Shown: positions 8,877-64,000, numbered from the stretch's first letter. The stretch is DNA of 64,000 bases from Candidatus Omnitrophota bacterium (GCA_028716565.1 JAQUPL010000002.1:96670-160669); one strand, 5' to 3'. Translations and numbers: made by a program. The notes: a model not told the origin generated them from the sequence alone.

Positions 8877-8879
8877 ACC

Positions 8880-11370: not shown

Positions 11371-11455
11371 TTTTTCAAGGAGGCGATTCGGTGAATCATA
11401 AACCAAGATCCGCAAAAAGGGGTTTTGGTTTTTTGGTTTAAGGAGTTGATTATTT

Positions 11456-13450: not shown

Positions 13451-13489
13451 AGTCATGCATATGAAATTCCAAAAAAAATCGCTCGTATT

Positions 13490-17233: not shown

Positions 17234-17234
17234 T

Positions 17235-18455: not shown

Positions 18456-18468
18456 ATAGAGAGGTTAT

Positions 18469-20106: not shown

Positions 20107-20121
20107 TTTGAGGGAGGCAAG

Positions 20122-21258: not shown

Positions 21259-21261
21259 ACT

Positions 21262-22401: not shown

Positions 22402-22404
22402 ACC

Positions 22405-46597: not shown

Positions 46598-46600
46598 GAT

Positions 46601-46804
46601 ATGGCAAGGATAACCATAGACAGGGACGCTTGCAAGGGTTGTGAGCTGTGCTCGATAAACTGCCCGGAAAAACTTATAATCATGGACGACTCGCTTAACG
46701 TTCGCGGCGTCCATCCCGCGAAATTCCGCGGCGTGGGTAAATGCAAGGGCTGCAAAATGTGCGCCATGATGTGCCCGGATATATGCATAGAGGTATATAA
46801 ATAA
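46601..46804 (+). CDS. 2-oxoacid:ferredoxin oxidoreductase delta subunit (2x[4Fe-4S] ferredoxin)
   Basis: CKGCELCSINCP and CKGCKMCAMMCP cluster motifs. Confidence 0.8.
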   Translation: MARITIDRDACKGCELCSINCPEKLIIMDDSLNVRGVHPAKFRGVGKCKGCKMCAMMCPDICIEVYK

Positions 46805-48630: not shown

Positions 48631-48634
48631 GAAA

Positions 48635-49177
48635 ATGAAAGAAGAGATAATATTCGCGGGTTTCGGCGGGCAGGGGATAATGGTGATGGGCAAGGTCCTG
48701 GCCTGGGCTGCGATGCGCGAAGGATTAAAGGTGACGTGGATGCCTTCTTACGGCGCCGAGGTTCGCGGCGGCACGGCGCATTCGATGGTCGTGATATCGG
48801 ACGAGATGGTCCCTTCGCCGGTCGTGACGAACCCGACGGCGTGCGTCGTGATGAACAGGCCGTCGATGGACAGATACGAGGATTCTCTCACGAAATCAGG
48901 CACTTTAATAGTCAATTCCACGCTGATTGACAGGCAGGCAGCGAGGAAAGATATATACGTCCTGGAGGTACCCGTAACCAAGCTGGCCAAGGAGCTGGGC
49001 AATACGCGCTGCGCGAACATGATAGCGCTAGGCGCGCTGAACGCTAAATTGAAGATAGTATCGATGAGGGCATTGGTCGACGCTTTAAAGGAAGTGATCC
49101 CTCCGGATAAGCACGGCCTTATTCCGATAAATGAAGAAGCGCTGAAGGAAGGCGCTAAACTGGTCTCAAGGCAATAG
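48635..49177 (+). CDS. 2-oxoacid:ferredoxin oxidoreductase gamma subunit
   Basis: IIFAGFGGQGIMVMGKVLA is the gamma-subunit signature. Confidence 0.8.
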   Translation: MKEEIIFAGFGGQGIMVMGKVLAWAAMREGLKVTWMPSYGAEVRGGTAHSMVVISDEMVPSPVVTNPTACVVMNRPSMDRYEDSLTKSGTLIVNSTLIDRQAARKDIYVLEVPVTKLAKELGNTRCANMIALGALNAKLKIVSMRALVDALKEVIPPDKHGLIPINEEALKEGAKLVSRQ

Positions 49178-51250
49178 ATGGTAAAGGTAAGGTTCGCCCC
49201 GTCTCCGACGGGTTTTCTCCACATAGGAAGCGCGCGGACCGCGCTCTTCAACTGGCTCTTTGCCAGGCACATGAAAGGCACTTTTGTCTTCAGGGTGGAG
49301 GACACCGACAGGGAGCGCTCGAAAGACGAATTCCTTCAGGAAATAATATCTTCGCTCGAATGGATGGGGATGAATTGGGACGAGGGGCCGTTTTACCAGA
49401 CGAAACGGCTCGATGTCTACCGCGAATACGCCAAAAGGCTGCTTAAAGAAGGAAAGGCGTATGAGGCGGAAGGGACGCTTGGCGGCGAGAAAGCGGTGAT
49501 CCTTACCATGCCAAAAGTGACGATGACGATGGATGACATCGTCCACGGCCCGGTCTCCTTCGATATGAACCTGCAGAAAGACCTCGTACTCATGAAGTCG
49601 GACGGATTTCCCGCCTATAATTTCGCGTGCGTCATCGACGATCATGACATGAAGATCACCCATGTGATACGCGGCGACGACCATATATCGAATACGCCGA
49701 AACAGCTGGCGGCCTACCAGGCTCTCGGTATCGAGCCGCCGAAATTCGCGCATATACCCCTTATACTGGGGACGGACCGTTCGCGGATGTCAAAACGCCA
49801 CGGCGCGACTTCTATCTCGGAATACAAAGAGATGGGTTTCCTTCCCGACGCCCTCGTCAATTACATCTCCCTTTTAGGCTGGGCGCCGACAGGCGACCGC
49901 GAGGTGATGCCGATCGACGAGATAATAAAGGAATTTTCCCTCGAGAGGGTCGGGAAGACCGGCGCCGTATTCGATATAGACAAACTGATCTGGATGAACG
50001 GCGAATATATCAGGGCAAAAAAGACGGAGGACCTGGTCCCATTCGTCGCGCCGAGGCTTAGAGAGAAAGGCGTAATAGGAGACGACTACGATAAGGTGCG
50101 GCTCAAGGAGGCGGTGGAGCTTTTTCATCCCCGCGCGAAGACGATCGCCGAACTAGCCGATTCGACCGCTCCGTTTTTCACAGACGACGTGGTTTACGAC
50201 GAAACCGCGGTCGCTTCTGTACTCGCCAAGGAAGGGGTAAAGGCAAAACTGGAGGCTGTTATCGCGAAATTCGGGCCGCTCAAGGCGTTCGATCCGCAGG
50301 CGCTCGAGGCCTGCGTCAGGGACCTTGCCTCGGAGTCGGGCGTTAAGGCGGCGGATCTCATACATCCGGTCCGCGTAGCCGTCACTGGCCGGAAGGTTGG
50401 CGCGAGCCTCTTCGAGACCCTTTCCCTTATCGGAAAAGAAAAGACGTTGGCGCGCCTTAAAGCGGGCCTCGCGAAGGCCTTATCGGTCGTGATGGCGGCC
50501 GGGCTTTTGATGACATGCCGGGATCTGCGGGCGGAGAAGATATACTACAAAGACGGAACTAAGGTCACGGAACAGGTGATCGGCCGTGATAAGAGATCGG
50601 TCTGGATCAAAGACCCCTCGGGGAATATCGCCGTAAACCCGGATCGCATACAAAAGATCCTGAATGATGACGGGTCGGTCTCCAAGTATGATTACGGGAC
50701 GATACTGAGGACGATAGAAGAGAAAGTGAGGGCCGGAAATTACAATGAGGCCGCGGACTTATGCGACCTTTTAGTGCAATCGTTCCCGAAGAGCAACGAG
50801 GTCCATTACCTTCGGGCGGTGCTTAACCAGAAGGCCGGAAGATTTTCCAAGACCGCAGAAGATTACAAATTCATAATCGACAGCAAGTATAGCGACGCCA
50901 AGGTCTTTAACAACCTCGGCGCGATATACGCCGCGGATAAAGACAACCGCAGCGCGATGGAGATGTTCAAGAAAGCCGCGGAGATGAACGGCGATATGCC
51001 AGAAGTCCATTATAACCTCGCCTTCCTGTTCCTGCAGGAGAAGGACTACGATAAAGCGATAGATGAATACAATAAAGTGATAGCCAAGGAGCCCGATAAC
51101 ACCACGGCCTTGTATAATCTCGGCGTAGCCTGCGCGTTTAAGGGGGATTTTGCCGGGGCGAGGGAGCGGTTCGAAAAAGTCATCGCGATAGACAAAGGCG
51201 ACGAAAGCGCGACGAAAGCGCTTAAGGCGCTTTTGAGAAAAAATAAGTAG
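49178..51250 (+). CDS. gltX: glutamate--tRNA ligase with in-frame C-terminal hydrophobic segment plus TPR-repeat extension
   Basis: Class I HIGH (PSPTGFLHIG) and KMSKS-like (RMSKRHG) motifs in the first ~440 aa. The frame then continues through ALSVVMAAGLLMTC into about 240 aa of TPR-like repeats with no intervening stop. Confidence 0.8.
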   Translation: MVKVRFAPSPTGFLHIGSARTALFNWLFARHMKGTFVFRVEDTDRERSKDEFLQEIISSLEWMGMNWDEGPFYQTKRLDVYREYAKRLLKEGKAYEAEGTLGGEKAVILTMPKVTMTMDDIVHGPVSFDMNLQKDLVLMKSDGFPAYNFACVIDDHDMKITHVIRGDDHISNTPKQLAAYQALGIEPPKFAHIPLILGTDRSRMSKRHGATSISEYKEMGFLPDALVNYISLLGWAPTGDREVMPIDEIIKEFSLERVGKTGAVFDIDKLIWMNGEYIRAKKTEDLVPFVAPRLREKGVIGDDYDKVRLKEAVELFHPRAKTIAELADSTAPFFTDDVVYDETAVASVLAKEGVKAKLEAVIAKFGPLKAFDPQALEACVRDLASESGVKAADLIHPVRVAVTGRKVGASLFETLSLIGKEKTLARLKAGLAKALSVVMAAGLLMTCRDLRAEKIYYKDGTKVTEQVIGRDKRSVWIKDPSGNIAVNPDRIQKILNDDGSVSKYDYGTILRTIEEKVRAGNYNEAADLCDLLVQSFPKSNEVHYLRAVLNQKAGRFSKTAEDYKFIIDSKYSDAKVFNNLGAIYAADKDNRSAMEMFKKAAEMNGDMPEVHYNLAFLFLQEKDYDKAIDEYNKVIAKEPDNTTALYNLGVACAFKGDFAGARERFEKVIAIDKGDESATKALKALLRKNK

Positions 51251-51285
51251 TTTGATATTTCTCAGAGATGTGATAAAATTATAGT

Positions 51286-52497
51286 ATGAAAAGAGTTATG
51301 CGATATAATAGGTCCGGGATAAGGGCGTTTACCCTAGTCGAGATATTGATCGCGCTCGCGGTAGTAGGGGTCCTTTTTGGCCTTATATTCGCCTTCTACA
51401 GGTCCGCCATAGACAGGTCCAAGTATGTTGGGGCCGTCGCCACGGTAGATTCTATCAGTAAGGCCGAAGAGATAAGCCAGATGAATACCGGCGAGTATGT
51501 GGCTGCCGCCGACACGCAAGAGGTAAACGAAAAACTCGGGCTGGATATAGAATCGAAAGAATATAATTTTAAGGTTATCGGGGTAACGAACGATAATTTC
51601 ATCGTCCTGGCGGAAAAGATACTAGATGATATCAATAGCGGAGACCTTTCTTCGGATCAGGCCGTAATAGCCAGGGATAAAACCGGGCCGATCCCTCCGG
51701 AATCGGTCGATACCCAAGGAGATGAAACCTCTCCCGGAGAAAATAGTCCCCCCGGCGGTGATTCTCCCGGCGGCGGTAGTCCGGGCGGCGGGGCTCCTTC
51801 GGGCGAAAGCAGCCCGGTTAGCACCCCGGGCGGGGGCGGAAGCCCTACCGGCGGCGGGATCCGGACGATAAGGCCGCGCCAAAGCACCCTCAGCGCCGAC
51901 ATATTAAATTTACTGGACGGCACTATCTCAGGACAGTGGGCGCTCGACCTTATCGCTAACAATAGCATAAAAGTAGTCTATGTCGACATTAATGATTACG
52001 GCCTTTCGGGCGCTTTGGCTTTTTGGGGAGGCACAAGAGATGGTTATATAGTCGTCGACAGGCATAACGTATTCGTAACAGGCAACACGATATTCGTAAA
52101 CGAGAACCTTCCCGCGCTTGGGTATCCCGATACCGCCATAGCTTCCATAATCACGCATGAAGCTACTCATGCCGATTACGATTATCATCCCCAGGCATGG
52201 ATAGACGCGACTAAACTCGCGCATCCGGAATTGACGGATAGCGACATCCATATAACCAAGTATCCGGGAGATTCCATAGACCAGGAATACCAGGCTTTTA
52301 ATAACGCCACGACCACCTGGAGGGAAATAAGGGGAGCCGATAGAAATACCGAAATGGATGATTGGATCACGCTCCAGGATACGCCTCCTCCGCCTATAGA
52401 TATAGGGCCGGAAGCGGCCATGAAAGCTGAGATCAGGACCAGGTATCCGACCAATCCGCCGATACCGATAGGATCGGGCGGGTTGCCGGAATATTGA
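51286..52497 (+). CDS. prepilin-type (type IV pilin-like) protein with G/S/P-rich linker and C-terminal metzincin-like zinc-metallopeptidase motif
   Basis: Class III signal IRA|FTLVEILIALAVVGVL. A low-complexity segment TSPGENSPPGGDSPGGGSPGGGAPSGESSPVSTPGGGGSPTGG. HEATHADYDYH has the HExxHxxGxxH spacing with Gly replaced by Tyr. Confidence 0.6.
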   Translation: MKRVMRYNRSGIRAFTLVEILIALAVVGVLFGLIFAFYRSAIDRSKYVGAVATVDSISKAEEISQMNTGEYVAAADTQEVNEKLGLDIESKEYNFKVIGVTNDNFIVLAEKILDDINSGDLSSDQAVIARDKTGPIPPESVDTQGDETSPGENSPPGGDSPGGGSPGGGAPSGESSPVSTPGGGGSPTGGGIRTIRPRQSTLSADILNLLDGTISGQWALDLIANNSIKVVYVDINDYGLSGALAFWGGTRDGYIVVDRHNVFVTGNTIFVNENLPALGYPDTAIASIITHEATHADYDYHPQAWIDATKLAHPELTDSDIHITKYPGDSIDQEYQAFNNATTTWREIRGADRNTEMDDWITLQDTPPPPIDIGPEAAMKAEIRTRYPTNPPIPIGSGGLPEY

Positions 52498-52516
52498 TAT
52501 TATCGGAGCAGACCAT

Positions 52517-53113
52517 ATGAAAAAATCGGCAGTAACGGTTTTTATTTTATTATTAGGAGCGGCCTATATGGTTACTTGTAGCGGTTGTTCCGGAGCGGGC
52601 AAATATAAAAAATATTCCAGCACAGACCCGGAGCTTAATTTAACGATGTACTATATCCCGGGTTGGGAGTTCAGCGAAACGCGCGGCGCCCATAACAGCT
52701 ATGTTGATGTCTATTTTGGCGAACCGTGGGACAAGGTAAGGGCAAAGACGCGCAGGGCATCCATCGAAGTCGTCTCTTTCCAGGTGCCGAAGACCGGGAC
52801 GCCGGATATCTCGGCCCTTGCCGAGGGGATTGCCGCCGGTAAATTAAGATTGAATGACGGTAAATTGCTCGGAAAGGCGAAGATAAAACTTCCGGCGGGA
52901 GAGGCGATGGACCTTTCTTTTTCCTTTAAGGCCCCGGACAGGCTCTATAACACAAGCTCTAAACTGTTGACTGTAAAAGAAAGGGTCGTGATCTTAAAGA
53001 ACGGCGACAGCCTTTATACCGTCAAATACCAGAACAGGGAAGAGGCTTTTGACAAATATAGCAAAGATTTCAACAATATAGTAAGGTCGATAAGGTTTAA
53101 AGTGAAAAGGTAA
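52517..53113 (+). CDS. hypothetical lipoprotein
   Basis: Lipoprotein signal LLLGAAYMVTCSGC. No family recognised. Confidence 0.4.
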   Translation: MKKSAVTVFILLLGAAYMVTCSGCSGAGKYKKYSSTDPELNLTMYYIPGWEFSETRGAHNSYVDVYFGEPWDKVRAKTRRASIEVVSFQVPKTGTPDISALAEGIAAGKLRLNDGKLLGKAKIKLPAGEAMDLSFSFKAPDRLYNTSSKLLTVKERVVILKNGDSLYTVKYQNREEAFDKYSKDFNNIVRSIRFKVKR

Positions 53114-53158
53114 TATTTTGCCGTCGCATTTCAACCGGTTCCCTCCCGAATATTAGAG

Positions 53159-54772
53159 ATGACTGATAAAATAAATATTCTTATACTTATAGCATGCTGT
53201 CTATTCTTGTATTTTATCGGAAGCGCCTCCATTAATCTTACCGATCCGGACGAGGTCTTCTACACCGGTACGGCAAAAGAGATGCTCGCTAACAAAAGCC
53301 TTCTTACGCCGCTTATCTTCGGAAAACCCCAGTTCGAGAAACCCCCGTTATTTTATTGGATGCTGATGGGTTCCTTCAAGGCCTTCGGCATCAATACATT
53401 CGCGGCGCGGCTTGTCCCTGCCCTGGTCGGGCTGATAGGAGTCATGGGGACTTATTTTTTCATGAGGAAGATATCCGGCGCCCAGGTCTCTTTTTACGCG
53501 GCCCTGTTCCTGTCGGCCGCGTTTTTGTATTTCGGGCTTTCAAAGACGGTGATCACCGATATCGCCTTTTCGGTCTTTACGGCATTCGCCCTTTACTCCT
53601 TTTATATCTGGTACAGGTCCAGGAAAGACCCTTATGTAGCCCTTTTTATGATAACCCTCTCCCTGGCCGTATTGACAAAAGGTCCGCTCGCCGTAGTCCT
53701 TGTTTTCGCCGCCATAATCCCGTTCCTCTTTTTGGCCAAGGGAGCCAAGGCCTTGCCGGCATTCTTACTGAACAGGTACTGGCTCATATTCCTGGCGCTC
53801 GGATGCGGCTGGTTTGTTTATGCCGTCGCAAAATACGGGAATGAGTTTGTCGGGGAATTTTTTGTGCGCGATAACTGGCACAGGATAATCTATGCAGAAC
53901 ACCGGAGTTCCGACAGATGGTATTTCTATCCGGCCGTCGTAATAGGGGGCATGGCCCCGTGGACGGCTTACCTCTTATTCCTGGGAAAGGGCTTTAAGGA
54001 GCATAGGGACGAATACCTCTTCTTTATCTCATGGATCGTCTCGACCTTTTTGATATTAACCTGCGCGCATTCTAAATTAGCCAGTTATATACTTCCGCTC
54101 TTCCCCGCGCTTTGTTGCGCCCTTGCCATTTCCGTGAATTCACTGTCCGGCAGGCCGAAGTCGCTTATCGCCGCGGGAGCCGTTAATATCCTTTTTGGGG
54201 CGGCAGGATTGATAGCGTCGCCGTTTATCGCGAAAGAATATCCGGACCTGGCAAAACCGTTTTTTTTGAGCCTTTTCCTACTTTTTATTTTCATGACGGC
54301 AGGAGGGGTATCGCTGATAAAAGGCAGGATAAAGCAGGCGGTATTTTTGAATATCGCGGCGCTCGCGGCTTTTCTGCTCGCGGGGGTATCTTCGGTCCCG
54401 GCTAAACTTGAAACAGCTTTTAGCGATCACGGCCTTCCTGAAATCGTGAGGAAGCACGGGTATGAAGGAAAGCCGATAGTTTGCAGCAAGATGTATGTGA
54501 GAGGGGTATATTTTTATACCGGAAACCCGGTCCTGGTCTTGAATATGGGCGGGAAAAAACCTTTTTGGAGCGACCATCCCTTAGATGTATTGAGCACGGA
54601 AGCGGAGGCGGTGACTTTTTTCAGGGATAAGGATAAAGTACTGTGTGTCTTGACTGAAGAAGGCCTGGAGAAGATAAACGGGTTTTTCGGAAGCGGCAGG
54701 AGGAACGCGGTGATATCGAGCAATTTAGACAGGGTGGTCGTCCTAAGCGAAAAAATCTCCCCGTTAAAATAG
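53159..54772 (+). CDS. glycosyltransferase family 39 (PMT/ArnT-like polyprenyl-phosphate-sugar:protein or lipid glycosyltransferase)
   Basis: N-terminal DE motif (LTDPDEVFYTGTAKEM), a KPPLFYWM loop and about 11 TM helices typical of the ArnT/PMT (GT-C) fold. Confidence 0.75.
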   Translation: MTDKINILILIACCLFLYFIGSASINLTDPDEVFYTGTAKEMLANKSLLTPLIFGKPQFEKPPLFYWMLMGSFKAFGINTFAARLVPALVGLIGVMGTYFFMRKISGAQVSFYAALFLSAAFLYFGLSKTVITDIAFSVFTAFALYSFYIWYRSRKDPYVALFMITLSLAVLTKGPLAVVLVFAAIIPFLFLAKGAKALPAFLLNRYWLIFLALGCGWFVYAVAKYGNEFVGEFFVRDNWHRIIYAEHRSSDRWYFYPAVVIGGMAPWTAYLLFLGKGFKEHRDEYLFFISWIVSTFLILTCAHSKLASYILPLFPALCCALAISVNSLSGRPKSLIAAGAVNILFGAAGLIASPFIAKEYPDLAKPFFLSLFLLFIFMTAGGVSLIKGRIKQAVFLNIAALAAFLLAGVSSVPAKLETAFSDHGLPEIVRKHGYEGKPIVCSKMYVRGVYFYTGNPVLVLNMGGKKPFWSDHPLDVLSTEAEAVTFFRDKDKVLCVLTEEGLEKINGFFGSGRRNAVISSNLDRVVVLSEKISPLK

Positions 54773-55114
54773 GTTTTATTTCCGCCGGAAATCAGGTATA
54801 ATTGTCTTCCGGCAATATAAGATCCGAAGTTTCTGCCCCGTTGGGTAATGGTAGCCCACAAGATTCTGGAACTGATGTAGATACTTGCAAAAACCGTCTC
54901 AAACCGCTATAACCCCTTAATCCAAATCACATTAGCCAAATCCGCGATTTTAATCAATTTTATCAAATTTTAGTCATTTTTAATCTAAAACAGTCATTTT
55001 ATAGACATCGACCCGGGAGTAGGATTTAGCATTTTAATTTATTTATCATCGTGGCCGCTCCACCGTACTTATCTCTGACTCTTGCCTGTAAATTAATCAA
55101 ACCTAATTTTGTTC

Positions 55115-55143
55115 TTGACAAACGTTTTTAATTAGGTTAAAAT
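55115..55143 (+). promoter_or_regulatory. sigma70-like promoter upstream of the higB-like toxin gene
   Basis: TTGACA (55115-55120), a 17-nt spacer, then TAAAAT (55138-55143). Confidence 0.45.
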
Positions 55144-55185
55144 TATTAACAGAAAGGGTTAAGAATTTTTTGACATATATCATAG

Positions 55186-55524
55186 ATGGATGTATACTTT
55201 GTTAACAGCAAATTGGGAAAGATTTTTAATAGCGAGAGGAATTTGCGAAAAAAATATGGCCCAATTTCAGACAAGATTAAACAAAGGCTAGCCGAGCTTA
55301 GGGCGGCTAGTACCTTATCGGAAGTATCTCAGTATCCGCCCGCCAGATGTCACGAGCTAAAAGAAAACCACAAAGGACAATTCGCAGTTAATGTTAGTGA
55401 AAATAAAAGATTGATATTCGTACCCCATAACCACCCTACTCCTCTCAAAGTTGATGGTGGCATAGATTTAACTAAGGTTACTGAGATTTGTATCATAGAC
55501 GTACTGAATTACCACCAAACTTAA
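55186..55524 (+). CDS. higB: HigB-like toxin (RelE/ParE superfamily, plasmid-killer type)
   Basis: 112 aa. ...CHELKENHKGQFAVNVSENKRLIFVP...EICIIDVLNYHQT parallels HigB (LHPLKGDREGYWSIRVN..RI.F...GDAYILNYEDYH). Immediately followed by an HTH antitoxin gene. Confidence 0.65.
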   Translation: MDVYFVNSKLGKIFNSERNLRKKYGPISDKIKQRLAELRAASTLSEVSQYPPARCHELKENHKGQFAVNVSENKRLIFVPHNHPTPLKVDGGIDLTKVTEICIIDVLNYHQT

Positions 55525-56601
55525 ATGTATAACACAAAAAAATATAAATTTAATCCTGATTATGCTGTTGCTCCCGGGGAGACGGTATTAGAATACCTCA
55601 ATCATCTAGGGATGACTCAAGCAGAATTGTCTACTAGAACGGGCAGACCATTAAAAACAATTAATGAGATTATAAAAGGGAAACAAGCCATAACACCGGA
55701 AACTGCGCTGCAATTCGAAAGAGCGCTTGGAATGACTGCTAGCTTCTGGAATAATCTCGAAAAAAATTATCGTGAAGTATTAGTTGGCAATAGAGAAACT
55801 CGACTTCTAGGAAATCATCTTGAATGGCTTAATAAAATACCAGTTAATGGCATGATAGCCAATGAATGGATAAAGAAATGTGACAACCCTGTTTATCAAT
55901 TGCAGGAAGTTTTATCTTTTTTTGGAGTTGCAAGCCCAAGAGAATTATCTGCAAACTGTTCTCAGGTTGTTTATAGACAATCCAAAAAATTAAGAGGTGA
56001 CCCTTGGGCAATTTGCGCATGGTTAAGAGAAGGGGAGTTAGTAGCTCAAGCCATAACTTGCGATGCTTATGATAGTGCGAAATTCCGTGCCGCTTTAAAT
56101 ACAATAAGAGGAATGACGGTAGAACCTATTTCTGATGTTTTGGTTAAATGGCAAAGTCTTTGCGCTGAATGCGGAATCGCTCTAGTTCTTGTGAAGGAAC
56201 TCCCAAATTTAAAAGTTAATGGCGCTACTCGTTGGATATCAAAAGACAAAGCCGTTATTCAGCTTTCATTGTTATATAAGTTTGCCGATATATTTTGGTT
56301 TACTTTTTTTCATGAAGCAGGCCATATATTATTGCATGGCAAAAAAGAAGTCTTTATTGAAAGCCATGGTAAAGAAAACAATAATGAAAAAGAAGCAGAT
56401 GAATTTGCAGAAAATATTCTGATACCAAAACGTGAATATAGTACATTTATTAATGCAGATAGTTTTACTTATGAAGATATTATAAAATTTTCTAAAAAAA
56501 TTGATATTTCCCCAGGAATTATACTTGGTCGTTTGCAATTTGAAAAGAGAGTACCTTACAATAGTTTTAGTAGTTTAAAACAAAGATTTTGCTGGAAGTG
56601 A
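55525..56601 (+). CDS. higA: HigA-like XRE-HTH antitoxin fused to ImmA/IrrE-family (COG2856) zinc-metallopeptidase domain
   Basis: N-terminal HTH (AVAPGETVLEYLNHLGMTQAELSTRTGRPLKTINEIIKGKQAITPETALQFERALGMTASFW). C-terminal HEAGHILLH (HExxH) together with ...EKEADEFAENILIP is typical of ImmA/IrrE peptidases. Confidence 0.65.
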   Translation: MYNTKKYKFNPDYAVAPGETVLEYLNHLGMTQAELSTRTGRPLKTINEIIKGKQAITPETALQFERALGMTASFWNNLEKNYREVLVGNRETRLLGNHLEWLNKIPVNGMIANEWIKKCDNPVYQLQEVLSFFGVASPRELSANCSQVVYRQSKKLRGDPWAICAWLREGELVAQAITCDAYDSAKFRAALNTIRGMTVEPISDVLVKWQSLCAECGIALVLVKELPNLKVNGATRWISKDKAVIQLSLLYKFADIFWFTFFHEAGHILLHGKKEVFIESHGKENNNEKEADEFAENILIPKREYSTFINADSFTYEDIIKFSKKIDISPGIILGRLQFEKRVPYNSFSSLKQRFCWK

Positions 56602-56613
56602 GAGGGAAATACT

Positions 56614-57381
56614 ATGACGATAGTAGAGATAGCTGATAAAATTGCAAACAATGCATGGTATGGAGTAATTTTTATAGCAGGTTTAGTAACAAAGTATGTT
56701 TTTGATTTATACAAAAACAAGATATCTAAACTACAGTACTCTATTAACAAATCTCTTCTTGGGGCATCAAACCAGGATAATTACTTAGGGAACGTCCAAG
56801 TTCTGTATAATGGTAAACCCGTAGAAAATCTTTATCTGTGCAATATCAATCTCGTTAATACGTCTAATAAAGATTTTAAAGATATTGAGATAACTGTATG
56901 GAGTGACATTGATAGTATTATTCTTGTTTCGAATGCTCTCAAAGCAAAAAGCATATATGCTCTGTCATTAACCCAAGCGTATGTAGAGCAAAGTAAGACT
57001 ATAACAGACCAAAATGTAAAATTAATTAATTCAAGGCGCCCTTATTTAATTCCTGTTTTGAATAGGGATGACAGTATCACTTTTTCGTGTCTTGTAACAA
57101 ATCCAAATAAAGCCGAACCAAATATATACTTAAATTGCGACTTTCCTGGATTAAAGATAGAGCCAACTTTTACAAAGCCAAAGTTATTTTGGAGGGAAAA
57201 TCAGGATACCGCGGCTCTGTACGGACTGCTTATTACCGCCATTATTTCAATATTTGTGACGCATTATTTACAATCTAAAGCTATCATTGCTTTGATTATA
57301 TTTATACTTGCCGCATTTTTGTTAATCCCAGGTGTTATAGTACTGAAAATATTAAAAAGAATTAGAAAATTGATAAGGTAG
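56614..57381 (+). CDS. hypothetical membrane protein (N-terminal TM helix, beta-rich middle, two C-terminal TM helices)
   Basis: Hydrophobic segments AWYGVIFIAGLVTKYVF and LLITAIISIFV...IIALIIFILAAFLLIPGVIVL. No recognisable family. Island cargo. Confidence 0.35.
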   Translation: MTIVEIADKIANNAWYGVIFIAGLVTKYVFDLYKNKISKLQYSINKSLLGASNQDNYLGNVQVLYNGKPVENLYLCNINLVNTSNKDFKDIEITVWSDIDSIILVSNALKAKSIYALSLTQAYVEQSKTITDQNVKLINSRRPYLIPVLNRDDSITFSCLVTNPNKAEPNIYLNCDFPGLKIEPTFTKPKLFWRENQDTAALYGLLITAIISIFVTHYLQSKAIIALIIFILAAFLLIPGVIVLKILKRIRKLIR

Positions 57382-57820
57382 ATTAAGATACGGTGCCCTC
57401 GTCTAAATCATATTGGATTCTGGATCCACGAAATATAGCTTAACCGTCTGTATTCCAAGTGGTTATATCAAAATAGTGCTTAATTTTTATAGTATTTTGT
57501 CTGGAAATTATGAGTAGAGCTGTCTGGAGCACCGTCTGGGCGCTGTCTGAGACTTATGAGAGCGATTGTCAGCACGCTATGAGGCACTTATTAGAGACAT
57601 GCAAGAAAAGTAAGGCTCTCATTATTTTGTTAATATGCCCGGTCGTTAAGCACAAAAGTATGGTATTCAATCATAATGAGCAAGAAAAGCCAAATTGATA
57701 AATGGTCTAAACTTTATGGTAGGCCAATAACCGAGGAAGAATACAGGCAGATTTGCGATGATTTAAGTAGATATTTCAAAACATTGCATAAATGGAATAA
57801 ACAAAACGAAAGTAAGTTAA

Positions 57821-58732
57821 ATGCCGGATAAAGCCATGTATTCAAATTATGTTCTCGCTTTAATTGATGTTTTAGGGCAAAAAGAACTTTTCCAAGGTTT
57901 CGACGATAGTTTCTTAACTGTTGTTGATGACCCCAGATTAGTAGCAATTCATAAAAATACAGTTATGGCGGTTGAGGAATTACGTGGAATTTTAGAAGGT
58001 TTTCTTAAGACTTTCACTGAAAACGGGGTAAGCGAAGAAGTAATTTCTAGGATACCACCTGATAAAGTAGACCAGTTCAGAGAAATGAGGAAGACCGAAG
58101 TAATAACTTATCGGTTTTCTGATTGTATACTTGCATACTCATCATTACAGAAAACAAAATATTGCTCCCCGGCAATGAATAGCGTTTATGGTATATTAAT
58201 GGCATGCGGGATAATGATGACTCTATCACTAGCTAGAAAAAAAGTATTTAGAGCCGCGGTAGATATTGGATTGGGGACGCTACTATCTAATGGAGAAGTA
58301 TATGGCCCCGTTTCTTATAAGGTTTATAAAATGGAAAGTTCAATAGCCCAATATCCGCGGATAGTAATAGGAGATAATCTTCATGCATATCTGACATCTT
58401 TATCACATGAGACAAAACAGTTTGAAGGCCAAACCGCAGAAGACATTAAATTATGTAAAGAAGAAGCTGGCATTTGCCTAAAAATGATTGTTCGAGACTT
58501 AGATGGCTATCCAATACTTGATTATTTAGGTGATACATTTAAAAACTGTTTAGGCGACGGCTATAATCATCCCGACGGCAGTATTAAAGAAGAAGAAATA
58601 TTGAATAAAGCCATGTATTTTATAAGGGAAGAATATGATAAAAAAAGGAAAATGAAAGATAGCAAACTAGCATTACGATATTTCTTACTTCTTAATTATT
58701 TTAAAGCTAGAATACCCAAAAAGAACATTTAA
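57821..58732 (+). CDS. hypothetical protein with class-III-nucleotidyl-cyclase-like palm-domain motifs (tentative)
   Basis: ALIDVLGQ (compare FADIVGFT), RFSDCILAY (compare KTIGDAYMA) and RAAVDIGLG...GPVSYKVYKMESSIAQYPRIVIG (compare RIGIHTG...GDTVNLASRMES...IL VS). Followed by a C-terminal extension of about 120 aa. Assignment rests on motif recall only. Confidence 0.35.
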   Translation: MPDKAMYSNYVLALIDVLGQKELFQGFDDSFLTVVDDPRLVAIHKNTVMAVEELRGILEGFLKTFTENGVSEEVISRIPPDKVDQFREMRKTEVITYRFSDCILAYSSLQKTKYCSPAMNSVYGILMACGIMMTLSLARKKVFRAAVDIGLGTLLSNGEVYGPVSYKVYKMESSIAQYPRIVIGDNLHAYLTSLSHETKQFEGQTAEDIKLCKEEAGICLKMIVRDLDGYPILDYLGDTFKNCLGDGYNHPDGSIKEEEILNKAMYFIREEYDKKRKMKDSKLALRYFLLLNYFKARIPKKNI

Positions 58733-58745
58733 TCAGGACGGTTAA

Positions 58746-58964
58746 TTAAAGGAAATAGTTTATATTTTTCCTGTAAATTTTAGCAAATTCTTTTAATTGT
58801 ATTAAATCCACTCTTCGCTGTCCAGCCTCTATTTTAGAAACATATGATTGTGTTCTGCCGAGTAGTTTTGCAACGTCTTCTTGTTTAAGCTTTCTCGATT
58901 TACGAGCTTCTATAAGCTTTTTAACGAGAATTTTATGACCTTCACTATAGATTGTCTTGTCCAT
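58746..58964 (-). CDS. XRE-family HTH transcriptional regulator (Cro/CI-like)
   Basis: LKQEDVAKLLGRTQSYVSKIEAGQRRV is a classic HTH_3. The only convincing minus-strand gene in the window, and divergent from the zinc-ribbon gene. Confidence 0.7.
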   Translation of the reverse strand: MDKTIYSEGHKILVKKLIEARKSRKLKQEDVAKLLGRTQSYVSKIEAGQRRVDLIQLKEFAKIYRKNINYFL

Positions 58965-59070
58965 ACCCCATCCGTATTTACCTTGACTGGTTACCTACCC
59001 TATGATATATTCCAAAATGAAATATGCCAAAATGGAATATAGTCAATTTGGCATTAAGGAGGATAAATTA

Positions 59071-59667
59071 GTGAAAAAGTGTCCTTATTGCGCTGAAGAT
59101 ATTCAAGAAGAAGCGATAAAATGCAGGTATTGCGGAGAGTATCTAAATAAAGAAAAAAGTAAAAATATTGGTAGCCTCAAAGAATATGTAGTTTATGTTA
59201 AAGAATATGAAATGGGCGAAAGCGGCGGGCATCAAAATTTTGGAATTAAAGGTGACGTTCGTTGCTCGAAGTGCGATAAGGAGCTGTCTAAAGAGGACGC
59301 TGAGGTATTTCAAAATAAATATTGGTGCAGTGAGCACTATTTAGAGGAAGTCCGCGGACTAGGCGGAGGCATGGCTTTTGGAGCCGTTGGAGCAGTGTAT
59401 GCAAATAATGAAAAAGATGCACTAGTTTTAGCGAAGAAAGAATATCCAAATGATTCTTATGGAGAGATTACCGTTAAGGAATCAACCGAAATTGGCAGGT
59501 ATTCATGTCCAAAATGCGAATGTAAATATACTATTTGTAATAAAGAAATAGGTTGTTTCTTTTGGTTATTAGGGATATTTACTCTTGGATTAGCGTTAAT
59601 ACTGATGTGGCCGTTCTTGCCTTATAAATGTCATTGCAGAGCTTGTAAATACGATTGGAAAGCATAG
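59071..59667 (+). CDS. zinc-ribbon protein with C-terminal TM helix (hypothetical)
   Basis: Several CxxC pairs (CPYCAEDI...CRYCGEY; CSKCDK; CPKCEC; CHCRAC) and the hydrophobic stretch FFWLLGIFTLGLALILMWPF. GTG start chosen because of the AAGGAGG SD 8 nt upstream. Confidence 0.4.
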   Translation: MKKCPYCAEDIQEEAIKCRYCGEYLNKEKSKNIGSLKEYVVYVKEYEMGESGGHQNFGIKGDVRCSKCDKELSKEDAEVFQNKYWCSEHYLEEVRGLGGGMAFGAVGAVYANNEKDALVLAKKEYPNDSYGEITVKESTEIGRYSCPKCECKYTICNKEIGCFFWLLGIFTLGLALILMWPFLPYKCHCRACKYDWKA

Positions 59668-59758
59668 CTTCCCGCCTCTAGCGTTTAAATTACCAAATAA
59701 TTTAATTAAAGAAAGTATTATCGTTGAACTCCATTTAAGCAAGTAGTATTATTTAGCT

Positions 59759-60550
59759 ATGATAAAGCACAGAGATAAAGAGGTCAAAGGCGTAAAAAGA
59801 TACAGCAGGGAGCCTCGAAATATGAGGATTTTTTGGTCTAGATTCTGGATGTATCAATGTCTTATTCGAACCCCAGAGTATCGTAGAGCTTATTGTAAAC
59901 TGAAAAAAATATTCATTGAAAAAGAAAAGTCGAAATTTGCAGAATATATCAAGCAAGAATTTAATCTTTCACGCATAATTAATCCATACAATAATGCCAA
60001 GAATAACGTTGATGATAAGGCGTTGAATGTGTCGGCTTTCAGAAATGGTTCATTGAGGAGCATGCGGAAGGATGAATTCAAACTGCCCGATTTTGTAAAG
60101 TTATCTAGCCGGGATGAAGATATACTGCAAGAACTTAAAGCAATCATAAAAGATGCCAAAAAGAAATCGGGTTATGATAGGTCTAGGCGCGATATAAAAT
60201 TGAAATTTATGAAAGATTATCTCAAGGTATGGGACATGAAGGAAGATGGTTTAAGCACTTGGGAAATAGCTATTAAGAGGAATCCGCATCTATCAAAAGC
60301 AAAAATCGGCGATGAATATGCAAAGATAAATAAAGAGGAATATGAAAAATATGATAGTTACTGTAATGAACTAATAGATAAATTGGGCATAGATAGCGAA
60401 ATAGCAGAAAAAATGATAAACAAGAAATTTCCAAAATTAGTTAGCGATCCTAAAGCAAGTAAATTGAAGTCAGAAATGAAGAAAATTCGTGAACAATACG
60501 CTATGGCTGCCAGATTAATTGAGGGAGGGATGTGGCGTTATATTAAATGA
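59759..60550 (+). CDS. hypothetical protein (Lys-rich; possible sigma-70 region-4-like HTH GLSTWEIAIKRNPHLSKAKIGDEY)
   Basis: ORF with a coding-like composition inside the island. No confident family. Confidence 0.35.
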   Translation: MIKHRDKEVKGVKRYSREPRNMRIFWSRFWMYQCLIRTPEYRRAYCKLKKIFIEKEKSKFAEYIKQEFNLSRIINPYNNAKNNVDDKALNVSAFRNGSLRSMRKDEFKLPDFVKLSSRDEDILQELKAIIKDAKKKSGYDRSRRDIKLKFMKDYLKVWDMKEDGLSTWEIAIKRNPHLSKAKIGDEYAKINKEEYEKYDSYCNELIDKLGIDSEIAEKMINKKFPKLVSDPKASKLKSEMKKIREQYAMAARLIEGGMWRYIK

Positions 60551-60623
60551 CACGTAATTGGTAATACCAGTTACGTAGTTATACAAAAATTAAAATCTTA
60601 TATATAATGTGCCAAAATCTAAC

Positions 60624-60640
60624 TCTAGAACCGTTCTAGA
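60624..60640 (+). promoter_or_regulatory. perfect palindromic operator TCTAGAAC-C-GTTCTAGA downstream of a TATAAT box (60603-60608)
   Basis: 8+1+8 inverted repeat lying 45-60 nt upstream of the paralogue A start. A second near-palindrome, ACGTAATTGGTA-A-TACCAGTTACGT, lies at 60553-60577. Confidence 0.5.
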
Positions 60641-60686
60641 GCGACACGATTTTGGCTTTTTTATGTACATTATTTACAAAGGAAAA

Positions 60687-61412
60687 ATGAAAATGAATAC
60701 AGCGAAGCTACGGAATATTAAAGATTGCATAAAAATCTGTCTCGAAAAGGGGGCTAAAAATGAGAATGAATTTATATCAATGCGCTACAGCATTATTTGC
60801 GAGTTGAAAAAGGCAGGCTTGGGTCAATATGAAATTGAAGAAATTATGATAGGCTGGTGCAAGAAGAATTATAAAGATTTATCTTATGTAGAATTTAAAA
60901 AACAAATCGTAGAATGCATCGAAATAATTTTTAAAAAGGATGCTAAAGCTGGTTGCGGATATATATCAGAGAATATCTTTTGTGTAGACGGGTGCAAATA
61001 CATGAGAACTAATCGGAGGAAGGGCAGCATAAAATTATCTGGAGAAAAATTTTGTACTGAGGATGAAATAGAGAAATGTTTGAAAAAATACGCTAAATGC
61101 CTCCATCCAATGGAATGTGCAAGAGTATACAAAATTATGGATACCAGAAGAGTTGAATTGGGGCTATTAAGAGAAGAAGCTTTTAATATGTCTTACGGGG
61201 ATATAGCAGATAAACTTTGGGTAACCGATGTCTCAACTGCAAATCCGAAGCAAGTGCATAGATTTGTCAACGAACTTATTGATAGCAAACTTTTAGAAAT
61301 GGTCACTATTAATGGAAAAAATAATTTTCATAGTCAAGCAAGAAGATACAAGCTGAAAACTCCAGAAGACATTTATAGTAATAAATTGTTTAACCTGCTT
61401 AATGAGCACTAA
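60687..61412 (+). CDS. hypothetical Cys-cluster protein, tandem paralogue A
   Basis: Shares KDAKAGCGY..EN.FC..GC.Y, LGLLR and KLKTPEDIY blocks with paralogue B. ATG 60687 (MKMNTAKL) chosen by analogy with paralogue B's start MNMNTLK. Confidence 0.4.
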   Translation: MKMNTAKLRNIKDCIKICLEKGAKNENEFISMRYSIICELKKAGLGQYEIEEIMIGWCKKNYKDLSYVEFKKQIVECIEIIFKKDAKAGCGYISENIFCVDGCKYMRTNRRKGSIKLSGEKFCTEDEIEKCLKKYAKCLHPMECARVYKIMDTRRVELGLLREEAFNMSYGDIADKLWVTDVSTANPKQVHRFVNELIDSKLLEMVTINGKNNFHSQARRYKLKTPEDIYSNKLFNLLNEH

Positions 61413-61486
61413 TAGTTAAACTAAAATGAAAGGCAGATAACTGCAAATAATTATACAATGCATATCGAAAAAAAGGAGGTTAATCA

Positions 61487-62206
61487 ATGAATATGAATAC
61501 ACTAAAAGATGTCAGAGATTGCGTGATGAAAAGTCTTAATGACGGTGTTTCAGATTTGCATGAATTTAGAATCATGCGGTACGGAATTATTTGTGAATTG
61601 AAAAGGATAGGATGCGGAAAAGACAGAATCGAAGAAATTATGAAACGCTGGAATGAAAAAAACTATAAAAAATTATCATTTAAAGATTTTAGAGAGCAAG
61701 TCAAAGTGTTTATTGATTGGGTATTCAAAAAAGATGCAAAAGTGGGATGTAATTATTTTACTGAAAATATGTGCTGTATAGCCGGGTGCAGGTATAAAGA
61801 GAATAAGATTAAAGAAGACAACAAGAAATTATCCGAAGAGGTTGTTTATACCCAAAGCGAAATAGAGAAATTCTTGACAGAATATGACGAATGCAAACAT
61901 TCAAGAGAATGTTCAATAGTTTATAAAATAATGGACAACAAAAGAGTTGCTCTGGGTTTATTAAGAAAACAAATACTTTATATGTCATTTGAAGAAATGG
62001 CAAAAATGCTTTGGGAGAATGGGTATTCAACTGCAAAGCCTATGAATGCGTGTAGATTTGTAAGAGAATTAGTTGACAGCGGACTCTTAGAAATAGTCGA
62101 AAGAGGAAAAAAGGGCAATTTTCATAGTCTAGCTAACGGCTACAATCTGAAAACTCCAGAAGATGTTTACAATAAAGACTTGTTTGAGTACTCTGACGGA
62201 CTATAA
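61487..62206 (+). CDS. hypothetical Cys-cluster protein, tandem paralogue B
   Basis: About 40% identical to paralogue A over its full length. AAGGAGG SD 8 nt upstream. Confidence 0.45.
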   Translation: MNMNTLKDVRDCVMKSLNDGVSDLHEFRIMRYGIICELKRIGCGKDRIEEIMKRWNEKNYKKLSFKDFREQVKVFIDWVFKKDAKVGCNYFTENMCCIAGCRYKENKIKEDNKKLSEEVVYTQSEIEKFLTEYDECKHSRECSIVYKIMDNKRVALGLLRKQILYMSFEEMAKMLWENGYSTAKPMNACRFVRELVDSGLLEIVERGKKGNFHSLANGYNLKTPEDVYNKDLFEYSDGL

Positions 62207-62279
62207 CTTCATAAGACTAATTCATCTTGATAGGCAGGCATAATCATATATATGTATAACAAATATAAGGAGCTATAAA

Positions 62280-62417
62280 ATGAGAAAAAAGAACTTACTC
62301 TTTGGCGTTAATTCCAAATGCAGACAATGCACCAAGGAATGTAAAAAATATGAGCAACAAACTGTTGTTTTGTGCAAATACTTCGATTCGGTTACGGCTA
62401 AAAAGAAAAGGCTGTAA
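62280..62417 (+). CDS. small Cys-rich protein (45 aa; not in ORF track)
   Basis: ATG preceded by ATAAGGAGC at a 7-nt spacing. MRKKNLLFGVNSKCRQCTKECKKYEQQTVVLCKY... contains CxxC...C...C. Confidence 0.3.
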   Translation: MRKKNLLFGVNSKCRQCTKECKKYEQQTVVLCKYFDSVTAKKKRL

Positions 62418-62547
62418 CCTGCAAGCACAGAAAAGCGTGGAAATTGACGATTCCAGACATGTTTTTCAGAAACCGTACTCATGCTATGAATAATCGCAAA
62501 AACGCTCTGGACAGACAATGGAGACTTAAAACAAGTCATTATTAGAC

Positions 62548-62730
62548 ATGGACAGCAGACTTTTGGGGATAGATGAATTATCGCAGTACTTGGGAATAGC
62601 GAAAGGCACTCTCTACGTTTGGGTGTGTCACAGGGAGATACCCTACCTAAAAGTCGGTAGATTAGTAAAGTTTGATTTACCAGAGATACAAGGCTGGCTC
62701 AAGAAGAGAAGAGTAAAGGAATTGCCTTGA
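62548..62730 (+). CDS. AlpA/Xis-family DNA-binding protein (excisionase-like)
   Basis: 60 aa. LGIDELSQYLGIAKGTLYVWVCHREIPYLKVGRLVKFDLPEIQGWL is the AlpA-type HTH. Immediately upstream of the integrase. Confidence 0.65.
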   Translation: MDSRLLGIDELSQYLGIAKGTLYVWVCHREIPYLKVGRLVKFDLPEIQGWLKKRRVKELP

Positions 62731-62787
62731 CCTGGCACTTTGGATGCACTACCATCCAAGAAAGAGCAAAAATAACAGGGGAAACGC

Positions 62788-63864
62788 ATGGGAGTATACG
62801 AAAAGAACGGAAACTGGTATATACGCTACTACATTGGTGACAAAAACGTAAGAAGAAAAGTAGGCCCAACCAAGGGTCTAGCTGAAATTGCGCTTAAAAA
62901 GATAAAAGTTGCGATGGCCGAGGGCAAATATTTAGATATAAAGAGAGAACAGAAGATTAAGTTTGAAGAATTCGCTGATGAATATATAAAGACACACTCA
63001 AAAACAAACAACAAATCTTGGGAACAAACCGACCTTCATACTGTTAAGTGCTTAAAAGCATTCTTCGCTGGTAAGTATCTAAGCGAAATAACTCCTCAGA
63101 TGGTGGAGCAATTTAAAGCAAAAAGAGTAACAGAAGTAAAGCCGGCTACTACCAACAGGGCGCTGGCGTTACTGAAGTCTATTTTCAATAAAGCTACAGC
63201 ATGGAATAAGTTTGATGGTCGAAATCCAGTTAAAGGAATTAAATTTTATAAAGAACACCCAAGACTTCGTTTTTTGGAAAGGGAAGACATTACTAAATTA
63301 ATAGACAATAATACCGAACCTTTAAAATCAATAGTCATAATCGCTCTAAATACTGGAATGAGAAGAGGAGAGATATTTAATCTTAAATGGCATGACATAG
63401 ATTTTGAGAGAGGGATAATTAGTTTATACCAAACAAAGAACGGGGAACAAAGAAAAGTCCCAATGAATGAGCAAGTCAAACAGACTATTATTGCGGTAAG
63501 AAAGACGCCGGATAGTCCTTACATATTCTGCAATAAAGACAAAAGACCATACTGCGATATAAGAAAATCATTTTTTACAGCATGCGATAAATGCGGTATA
63601 ACTGATTTTCATTTTCATGATTTAAGACATACTTTTGCTTCTCAATTGGTAATGTCGGGTATCGATTTAAATACAGTCAGAGAGCTGTTGGGGCATAAAA
63701 CCATTGAGATGACGTTGCGGTATGCTCACCTTTCGCCGGACTTCAAGAAACGAGCAGTTGACATCCTAGGAAGGAAAATAGGCATTCTTCCAATGCCCGT
63801 TCAAAAAGAAGCGGAAAAGACAGAAGTTTTTAAAATTGCAACTACGGCATTTATTCAAGAATAA
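62788..63864 (+). CDS. tyrosine-type site-specific recombinase/integrase
   Basis: N-terminal SAM-like domain. Catalytic region ...RRGE...HDLRHTFASQLVMSGIDLNTVRELLGHKTIEMTLRYAHL carries the R..H..R..Y signature. Confidence 0.9.
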   Translation: MGVYEKNGNWYIRYYIGDKNVRRKVGPTKGLAEIALKKIKVAMAEGKYLDIKREQKIKFEEFADEYIKTHSKTNNKSWEQTDLHTVKCLKAFFAGKYLSEITPQMVEQFKAKRVTEVKPATTNRALALLKSIFNKATAWNKFDGRNPVKGIKFYKEHPRLRFLEREDITKLIDNNTEPLKSIVIIALNTGMRRGEIFNLKWHDIDFERGIISLYQTKNGEQRKVPMNEQVKQTIIAVRKTPDSPYIFCNKDKRPYCDIRKSFFTACDKCGITDFHFHDLRHTFASQLVMSGIDLNTVRELLGHKTIEMTLRYAHLSPDFKKRAVDILGRKIGILPMPVQKEAEKTEVFKIATTAFIQE

Positions 63865-64000
63865 TAAATGACAAATAAACTTCTTTAATCTTCTCCCTAC
63901 ACAGAGCAAAAGGATTATACTAAAAGTAATGGCGTGAACGAGGCTCGGGCGGGGTAGTGCAAAACCCGTAAAAAGCAAATTCTCGTATTAATCCATTGCG

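Follow-up and report, generated by a model that had tools for sequence, protein, structure and literature searches.

An 11-kb integrative island inserted in reversed orientation at a tRNA-Gln gene of a Candidatus Omnitrophota genome

We analysed a window of 64,000 nucleotides from a Candidatus Omnitrophota metagenome-assembled genome (MAG; GCA_028716565.1, JAQUPL010000002.1:96670-160669), the right end of which turns AT-rich just downstream of a gene for a GT39 protein. An earlier reading of the sequence alone had proposed an integrative island there, running from 54773 to the window end. We conclude, with a probability of about 90%, that the AT-rich stretch is an 11-kb integrative island that arose by tyrosine-integrase site-specific recombination into the tRNA-Gln(CUG) gene downstream of GT39. 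The island is genuine, bounded to the base and recently mobile, and apart from its integration geometry it is an ordinary genomic island. That geometry is of the uncommon "reversed" (5′-fragment) type, a kind that is already known.

The compositional change is as sharp as the sequence-only reading had stated. Measured in 500-bp steps, the guanine-plus-cytosine (GC) fraction is 0.51-0.59 across 40-52 kb, drops to 0.43 at 54.5-55.0 kb and stays at 0.28-0.41 up to the window end. Island-specific DNA has a GC content of 34.1%, against 53.2% in the host DNA at 30-54.87 kb and 49.7% in the host portion of the window overall. The low GC starts at base 54871; the left junction is at 54870/54871 and not at 54773.

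An exact-protein look-up of the integrase recovered a 7012-bp contig, L001, that matches window positions 59001-64000 with 0 mismatches in 5000 bases and continues for 2012 bp past the window end (positions there are given as window-equivalents). This contig ends in a 30-mer, TTTCTGCCCCGTTGGGTAATGGTAGCCCAC, identical to window 54830-54859, a sequence that is found once in the window (0 expected by chance). The second repeat copy begins at L001 6983, or window-equivalent 65983, 11,153 bp downstream of the window copy. This repeat-to-repeat distance is the size of the island, which spans 54871 to window-equivalent 66,023 with the right repeat copy included. Extending the contig, a check suggested along with the original proposal, thereby produced the second copy of a direct repeat that is part of tRNA-Gln(CUG); it lies about 2.0 kb past the window end, not just beyond 64000 as had been expected. 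Two sister contigs of 273,850 and 262,766 bp differ by 11,084 bp. The longer one, an NCBI contig from a Candidatus Omnitrophica MAG, encodes the integrase (MDD5546307.1) and, next to it, MDD5546308.1 and MDD5546309.1. For the GT39 protein, an exact look-up gave no record. The features that define the integration are as follows.

54774-54829, plus strand: native upstream region of the tRNA-Gln gene
54830-54870, plus strand: left attachment site (attL), a 41-bp direct repeat holding the displaced 5′ fragment of tRNA-Gln(CUG)
54871-55080, plus strand: P′ arm, at the left end of the island
62548-62730, plus strand: excisionase-family helix-turn-helix (HTH) protein, 60 amino acids (aa)
62788-63864, plus strand: tyrosine integrase, reading toward the restored tRNA
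65811-65839 (window-equivalent; L001 6811-6839), plus strand: TTTACA-17-TATAAT, an 11/12 sigma-70-like promoter match
65826-65982 (window-equivalent), plus strand: P arm
65983-66023 (window-equivalent), plus strand: repeat copy of the right attachment site (attR), followed by the tRNA 3′ half, with the right flank taken from L099 and L098

The repeat identifies the target. Positions 54834-54870 are nucleotides 1-37 of tRNA-Gln(CUG), comprising the 5′ strand of the acceptor stem, the D arm, the 5′ strand of the anticodon stem and the entire anticodon loop, TTCTGGA. The 41-bp repeat thus covers tRNA positions -4 to +37, with 4 bp upstream added to nucleotides 1-37, and it ends at the last base of the anticodon loop. 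Its length is set at 41 bp because the left copy and the start of L099 and the sister contigs bound it. The half gene had been missed by the sequence-only reading and was recognised only through comparison with other genomes; on window 52-64 kb, ARAGORN and Rfam (E <= 1) found no RNA gene because just half a tRNA is present. When species-representative genomes were scanned, the 30-mer appeared in 10 contigs, of which nine carry an Omnitrophota label and one a Planctomycetia label. It opens an intact 74-nt tRNA-Gln(CUG) in all but one of them, and ARAGORN called the intact 74-nt gene in L003-L011.

Related genomes without the island carry an intact tRNA at the exact junction. Searching with the gene downstream of the tRNA in L005 uncovered L098 (GCA_028711645.1), which differs from window 44930-54870 by 8 mismatches in 9941 bases (99.92% identity). 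The identity stops exactly at 54870; beyond that base L098 completes the tRNA with its 3′ half, which is followed by a 187-aa gene and then by an RND efflux operon. L098 is an essentially isogenic empty site. Three further genomes, L005 (~87% identical), L009 and L011, have the GT39 gene and the shared upstream region followed by intact tRNA-Gln, and in all four the native upstream sequence at 54774-54829 precedes the intact gene. A contig from a third sister MAG (L099) starts at the first base of the 41-bp repeat and runs into the same right flank as L098; all 41 attL bases are identical to the L099 start and to the intact gene of L098. Because presence and absence of the island differ between 99.9%-identical genomes, its movement must be recent. 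All three parts of the Islander signature are present here: a tyrosine integrase, a tRNA end fragment in the same orientation as a full gene at the other end, and an uninterrupted target in a relative. The proposal of an integrative island downstream of GT39 is therefore upheld by the xis-int genes, the direct repeat and the empty site in relatives.

The sequence-only reading had looked for a target at the 3′ end of a tRNA or tmRNA gene. The target is indeed a tRNA, but it is the 5′ half that is duplicated, with the attL copy inside the window. As this fragment has the orientation of int and precedes the regenerated gene, the island is located 5′ of the regenerated tRNA. In this arrangement the old promoter and a dead tRNA 5′ half remain at attL, and the intact tRNA at attR would be a hybrid of an island-borne 5′ half and a chromosomal 3′ half. 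Beyond the attR repeat the predicted sequence is TCTTGCTGTCTAGGTTCGAGTCCTAGCGGGGCAACCA, followed by the 187-aa gene, and the predicted junction of the element's own attachment site (attP) is …TAGTTAGATGGT + 41-mer + ACTGATGTAGATAC…. By analogy with other anticodon-loop attachment (att) sites, strand exchange would most likely occur within the 7-nt anticodon loop.

This geometry has consequences for transcription at both ends. The native -10 box TATAAT (54797-54802, within the 15-mer AAATCAGGTATAATT at 54789-54803) now reads into the island, and the hybrid tRNA at attR must be transcribed from island DNA because the island 5′ half replaces the native one. The TTTACA-17-TATAAT promoter sits 147 nt before the restored tRNA in L001 and 148 nt before the tRNA in L013, which belongs to a related island; identical hexamers with the same spacing occur 20-30 nt upstream of native tRNA-Gln in five other Omnitrophota. 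The hybrid tRNA would likely be driven by this promoter, and the motif suggests that the island probably brings its own promoter for the gene it restores. Relatives with int directly against the tRNA may generally rely on read-through from int, which has been reported for pTN3. At the left end, every island gene in 54871-64000 except that of a 72-aa XRE regulator shares the strand of the stranded native tRNA promoter. A scan of 54600-55300, which spans the attL promoter and the start of the first cargo gene, found no plus-strand terminator-like site. Because the cargo is co-directional and this interval holds no such site, host tRNA transcription may read into the cargo.

Some observations weigh against this account of the island. 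The attR junction of this genome is reconstructed: it was read through the first 26 tRNA nucleotides, and the remainder was taken from the sister contigs L099 and L100. L001, L096 and L104 all end inside the repeat, as expected because of the k=31 assembly, and the 3′ continuation comes from L099, L100 and L098. We examined Logan contigs with the integrase, the last cargo gene, the HigB-like gene or the right-flank gene for read-through at attR or attL, and every one stops inside the repeat. Because no circular or attP junction was seen among them, current mobility is deduced only from presence and absence between 99.9%-identical genomes. A scan of Joint Genome Institute (JGI) metagenomes for the 26-mer of the attR junction gave 0 matches. 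In addition, the crossover point inside the 41 bp is not deducible from sequence. Finally, when the 120 nt upstream of the tRNA were surveyed for promoters in 55 relatives, sigma-70-like sites were not clearly more frequent than in control windows, and for this reason the promoter argument draws on this island and L013 only.

Three other explanations of the AT-rich stretch were weighed. In a conventional tRNA island, the target would lie just beyond 64000 with a duplicated 3′ end, and a short 3′-end repeat would be found near 54.8 kb. Precedent favours such an arrangement, since 3′-fragment islands are the commonest type (3760 of 3919 Islander islands; PMC4383910) and the nearest cultured-phage relative, D3, has an attP that is the reverse complement of the 3′ part of a tRNA, directly after int. 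Nevertheless, positions 54834-54870 hold tRNA nucleotides 1-37, on the int strand and upstream of the island, which refutes the conventional arrangement; past 64000, two protein genes come before the repeat and no tRNA is called there. We give this explanation practically no credence. It is also very improbable that the low-GC block is ancestral or native and was lost in relatives, in the manner of the polysaccharide cluster at 12-22 kb, which shows that a lower GC content also occurs elsewhere in the window without any integrase. The tRNA is uninterrupted at the exact junction in four genomes that are 87-99.9% identical, as well as in more distant ones, and the block has xis-int genes and a perfect direct repeat at its ends. 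Its GC content of 34% is below that of every host 9-kb window (minimum 41.7%), and the same integration module occurs with entirely different cargo in another host.

A defective prophage or phage satellite, mobile only with a helper, is a more serious contender that we nonetheless regard as unlikely. The small size (11 kb), the xis-int module, the divergent, switch-like XRE regulator and the possible winged-helix initiator paralogues would all suit such an element. Relatives of the integrase are found in true phages (2355 phage records match), and the neighbouring element in locus L015 is a prophage. Against this, PHROGs identified no capsid, terminase, portal, tail or packaging function in any open reading frame (ORF) of the island, and the island genes include no relaxase or coupling protein either. 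Related integrases also serve very different elements: L014 carries a type I restriction-modification system and a DUF3987 primase, and L015 carries a relaxase and TrwB.

The integrase itself, as the sequence-only reading had recognised, is a tyrosine recombinase (PF00589, 9.5e-38; PF24624). Residues R192, K217, H277, R280, H303 and Y312 are invariant in an alignment with 25 homologues, and the closest solved structures to its catalytic domain are chains of PDB entries 5c6k and 5dor (labelled only "Integrase") and the HP1 integrase 1aih. It does not stand at the extreme right end of the island, as had been supposed: two more cargo genes follow, and int is located 2.1 kb from the att core. The small protein encoded before it had been called an AlpA excisionase. 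Its excisionase family is supported by PF12728 (1.7e-9, 38.2 bits against a cut-off of 27) and TIGR01764 (42.8 bits against 28.8), and it is a candidate recombination directionality factor. AlpA membership was rejected (PF05930, E = 0.077, 13.3 bits against a cut-off of 21).

Repeated motifs mark the two ends of the island. The P′ arm contains repeated AGTCATTTT and AGACAT motifs, and both arms hold repeated AG(A/T)CA(C/T)TTT motifs that are plausible arm-type sites of the integrase. In our reading, xis-int, a P arm of ~190 bp and a P′ arm of ~210 bp form a lambda-style integration module, the remainder being exchangeable cargo. A related island in another host (L012/L013) has the same general layout. 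Its integrase is 89% identical and all of its cargo is different; attL holds no more than the 5′ half of tRNA-Gln, whereas the gene at attR is intact. Common to the two islands are only the P′ arm (window 54779-55080, 83% over 303 bp), xis-int (62430-63771, 88%) and the P arm (equivalent 65826-66006, 82%).

More distant relatives share the orientation. L014 and L015, whose integrases are 71% and 69% identical, have an intact tRNA-Gln that shares the strand of int and lies at its 3′ end. In both, the called integrase ORF continues through the tRNA-Gln gene (L014 10001-11182, L015 10001-11227). The att core overlaps the non-conserved C-terminal tail of these integrases, and excision would therefore alter the tail. 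In L015 (JBGGHB010000137.1, 10001-21227), the 5′ side of the tRNA-Gln holds an island of the same integrase clade, with its relaxase and TrwB-like protein. A prophage with a serine recombinase and with terminase and portal genes occupies the 3′ side, so that a single tRNA gene serves elements on both of its faces.

Homologues of the integrase number more than 7000 at E <= 1e-30. A profile search of JGI metagenomes extended the sample to 80 loci, with integrases 45-64% identical except in L016 (93%). Of the 74 loci with enough downstream sequence, 55 have a tRNA on the same strand within 200 nt downstream of the integrase gene, one has a tRNA on the opposite strand and 18 have none. L073, like phage D3, has the conventional orientation. 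The strand is thus shared in 55 of 56 tRNA-adjoining relatives. Eleven isotypes are used (Gln, Lys, Thr, Met, Gly, Pro, Ala, Leu, Phe, Arg and Ser). Four JGI loci with long upstream flanks contain perfect 39-44-bp copies of the tRNA 5′ half, 6.4-10.4 kb upstream, which end 0-2 nt past the anticodon loop. The displaced 5′ fragment precedes the regenerated tRNA in L020, L038, L055 and L065, as in L012/L013. Hence the reversed anticodon-loop arrangement belongs to the integrase clade and not to one odd island.

Two further contigs bear on the history of this tRNA gene. In another species, contig L002 (JAZDOX010000058.1, 2560-2700, minus strand) has a tRNA-Gln 5′ half that breaks off at the same base, where unrelated DNA begins; the 63 nt upstream of the half tRNA are 87% identical to the P arm of the island. 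The site may represent a tandem array, a junction resembling attP or a native upstream region similar to the arm, the last of which would hint at arm capture. Contig L008 (JAUYOH010000100.1, 1079-1400) has an intact tRNA-Gln and, ~230 nt further on, a second copy of 20 nt from the 3′ end of that gene (GAGTCCTAGCGGGGCAACCA), which looks like the scar of a conventional 3′-type insertion at the same tRNA.

Integration that leaves a displaced 5′ tRNA fragment has precedents. Zhao and Williams reportedly described such tDNA islands in 2002 (J Bacteriol 184:859), under the term "reversed target orientation". In the Islander collection, 159 of 3919 islands have a 5′ fragment, which makes the reversed kind a known but 4% minority (PMC4383910, Table 1). 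Bacterial recombinant tRNAs are said to be expressed from the original promoter "with very few exceptions", and the 5′-half situation to be "seldomly encountered in bacteria" (PMC8371274). Our island resembles the known reversed islands in its tyrosine integrase, in the tRNA regenerated at one end and in the 5′ fragment upstream in the same orientation (PMC4383910, PMC6563490, PMC8371274). As in those islands, the displaced 5′ fragment upstream means that the element must supply tRNA transcription. It differs in its host, an uncultivated Omnitrophota MAG, in its target, tRNA-Gln(CUG), and in the reversed arrangement of 55 of 56 sampled relatives. The pTN3-like integrases of Thermococcales also use the 5′ half of a tRNA as the bacterial attachment site (attB), and the resulting tRNA depends on element DNA for its expression, in pTN3 on the integrase promoter (Cossu et al. 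2017, via Badel et al. 2021, PMC8371274). However, pTN3 is archaeal and "suicidal", with attP inside int so that integration splits the gene, whereas the int of our island is intact and a separate consensus promoter is present.

Phage integrases offer a second comparison. Anticodon-loop att sites are said to form sublocation A in a classification by Williams from 2002, used by P2/HP1/D3-like phage integrases. The identity block of the island is bounded by the anticodon loop in the same way, ending at 54870, which would place it in Williams class A, and it likewise has an xis-int-attP module. Among cultured phages, Pseudomonas phage D3 has the nearest integrase (33.5% identity), and its xis, int and attP are arranged in the same order. 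The tRNA-derived block of D3 is a 3′ half antiparallel to int, whereas the block of the island is a 5′ half parallel to int. We infer that the block keeps its place relative to int and that the tRNA is flipped about its symmetric anticodon stem-loop. Elements of the SXT/R391 family integrate into the 5′ end of prfC and supply a new promoter and 5′ end. They are large conjugative elements with a protein-coding target and no tRNA; the common point is a 5′-end target with an element-supplied promoter.

The remaining island genes are listed below.

55186-55524, plus strand: HigB-like (RelE-fold), toxin-like protein
55525-56601, plus strand: HigA HTH fused to an M78 (ImmA/IrrE) peptidase
56614-57381, plus strand: membrane protein, 255 aa
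57821-58732, plus strand: class III nucleotidyl-cyclase-fold protein by predicted structure, 303 aa
58746-58964, minus strand: XRE-family regulator, 72 aa, the sole minus-strand island gene
59002-59667, plus strand: zinc-ribbon protein
59759-60550, plus strand: hypothetical protein MDD5546304.1, 263 aa
60609-61412, plus strand: Cys4 helical domain with winged helix, paralogue 1 (likely true start M29 at 60693; NCBI form 239 aa)
61487-62206, plus strand: Cys4 helical domain with winged helix, paralogue 2
62280-62417, plus strand: Cys-rich small ORF, 45 aa, putatively coding (called as a gene at L001 3280-3417)
64127-64846 (window-equivalent), plus strand: MDD5546308.1, 239 aa, beyond the window and following the integrase
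64957-65751 (window-equivalent), plus strand: MDD5546309.1, 264 aa, beyond the window

This cargo looks defence-related, with the HigB-like/HigA-M78 genes, the cyclase fold, the XRE regulator and the Cys4 winged-helix paralogues. The first two genes had been read as a HigB/HigA-peptidase pair. The HigA-M78 half of that claim is secure (TIGR02607 at 56 bits, cut-off 47.7; PF01381; PF06114), whereas the HigB-like protein falls just below the cut-off for PF05015 (E = 1.2e-5; 26.1 bits against 27). Two 11/12 sigma-70-like promoters are found near the HigB-like gene, at 55115-55143 and 55170-55198. A HigB-like gene followed by a HigA-HTH-peptidase fusion is also the arrangement of PD-lambda-2, and the fusion matches the PADLOC model PD-Lambda-2_B (PDLC03982) at 8.3e-32 over residues 15-352. 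In that system, component C, which is related to the P4 antitoxin, is required for defence (Vassallo et al. 2022, PMC9519451). The island lacks component C, for which reason full membership was rejected; the next gene encodes the unrelated 255-aa membrane protein, and the PADLOC A model found no match.

Other labels given from sequence alone agreed with our results. The 255-aa protein has one N-terminal and two C-terminal hydrophobic segments in its translation, and searches of Pfam, PHROGs and NCBIfam gave no match, with only a chance-level Csm2 hit in PADLOC (E = 0.0057). The divergent regulator belongs to the XRE family (PF01381, E = 1.7e-12). The zinc-ribbon protein matches PF13248 and PF12773 below their cut-offs, has a C-terminal hydrophobic segment and matches several PHROGs of unknown function (best 4.7e-10). 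The 263-aa protein has no family match in Pfam, PHROGs or NCBIfam.

The label "cyclase-like" holds for the 303-aa protein at the level of fold. Its AlphaFold2 (AF2) model has a predicted local distance difference test (pLDDT) score of 93.1, and the top 50 Foldseek matches in the PDB are all class III cyclase domains (adenylyl, guanylyl and cytidylyl), including the Pycsar cytidylate cyclase 8jsf. These matches are weak, with E ~1e-3 and target-normalised template-modelling scores of up to 0.65. Among 147 homologues, none with a Pfam domain, D16, D101 and R144 are invariant; D16 and D101 are the two metal-binding aspartates, and the protein corresponds to a cyclase homology domain at fold level. 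PADLOC and Pfam gave no match, and no island neighbour has a domain that binds cyclic nucleotide monophosphates. Membership of Pycsar was rejected, as there is no match to a PycC model and no adjacent cyclic-nucleotide-binding effector. One homologue, P0143, has a type I HsdR/DUF2326 pair on one side and a PLD gene on the other; its contig (L101, ERZ27279977 k141_1592686, 6001-12897) contains a perfect inverted duplication of its own gene order and is probably an assembly artefact.

The duplicated Cys-cluster proteins noted earlier are indeed paralogues (49% identical, E = 2e-76). They belong to a rare family, with 53 representatives in 1.84 billion proteins, in which C88, C97 and C101 are invariant and C12 is present in at least 90% of 34 sequences. 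Their winged helix is C-terminal, and the AF2 model of paralogue 2 (pLDDT 94.6) resembles known folds only weakly (E >= 0.02), namely PadR/Fur-type winged helices, the plasmid initiator RepA, Cdc6/Orc1 and RTP. From these models, our guess is that the paralogues might bind DNA, in a regulatory or replication-initiator role.

Two features elsewhere in the window are unconnected with the island. A second stretch of lower GC (0.40-0.44) at 12000-22500 is a co-directional cluster of polysaccharide/O-antigen type, with genes for a Wzx flippase, a Wzy protein, several GT4 and GT2 glycosyltransferases, a UDP-GlcNAc 2-epimerase and a WecA-like transferase. We considered a second island or integrase at 12-22 kb and rejected it, as this polysaccharide biosynthesis cluster has no integrase and no tRNA fragment. 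At 49178-51250, a glutamyl-tRNA synthetase gene encodes a 690-aa product with a long C-terminal tetratricopeptide-repeat extension, an architecture that is the same in the sister L098.

Taken jointly, the comparisons suggest a wider picture that we put forward tentatively, as somewhat less than an even bet. The integrases would form a large clade that is common in Omnitrophota, occurs in Nitrospirota and other uncultivated lineages as well, uses at least 11 tRNA isotypes and has integration at the 5′ half and anticodon loop as its rule. Compared with D3-like ancestors, the core would have been turned around on the symmetric anticodon stem-loop, takeover of host tRNA transcription would be routine, and the stranded attL promoter would face co-directional cargo. 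Within the same picture, the cyclase-fold family would be a new single-gene defence candidate.

With its boundaries fixed to the base and its target identified, the island is a concrete, probably active mobile element in Omnitrophota, a phylum without genetic tools. Its compact module, consisting of xis-int and an attP of ~430 bp with a 37-41-bp core, could be used as an integration tool. Two cargo families are candidates for functions in defence or replication: the cyclase-fold proteins, for which Pfam has no model, and the rare Cys4 winged-helix proteins. In about 96% of mapped tRNA islands, the element replaces the 3′ end and keeps the host promoter, whereas here and in nearly all sampled relatives the 5′ half is replaced and the element must drive the tRNA. 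A consistently reversed clade beside conventional D3-like relatives is a good system in which to study how integrases switch target orientation.

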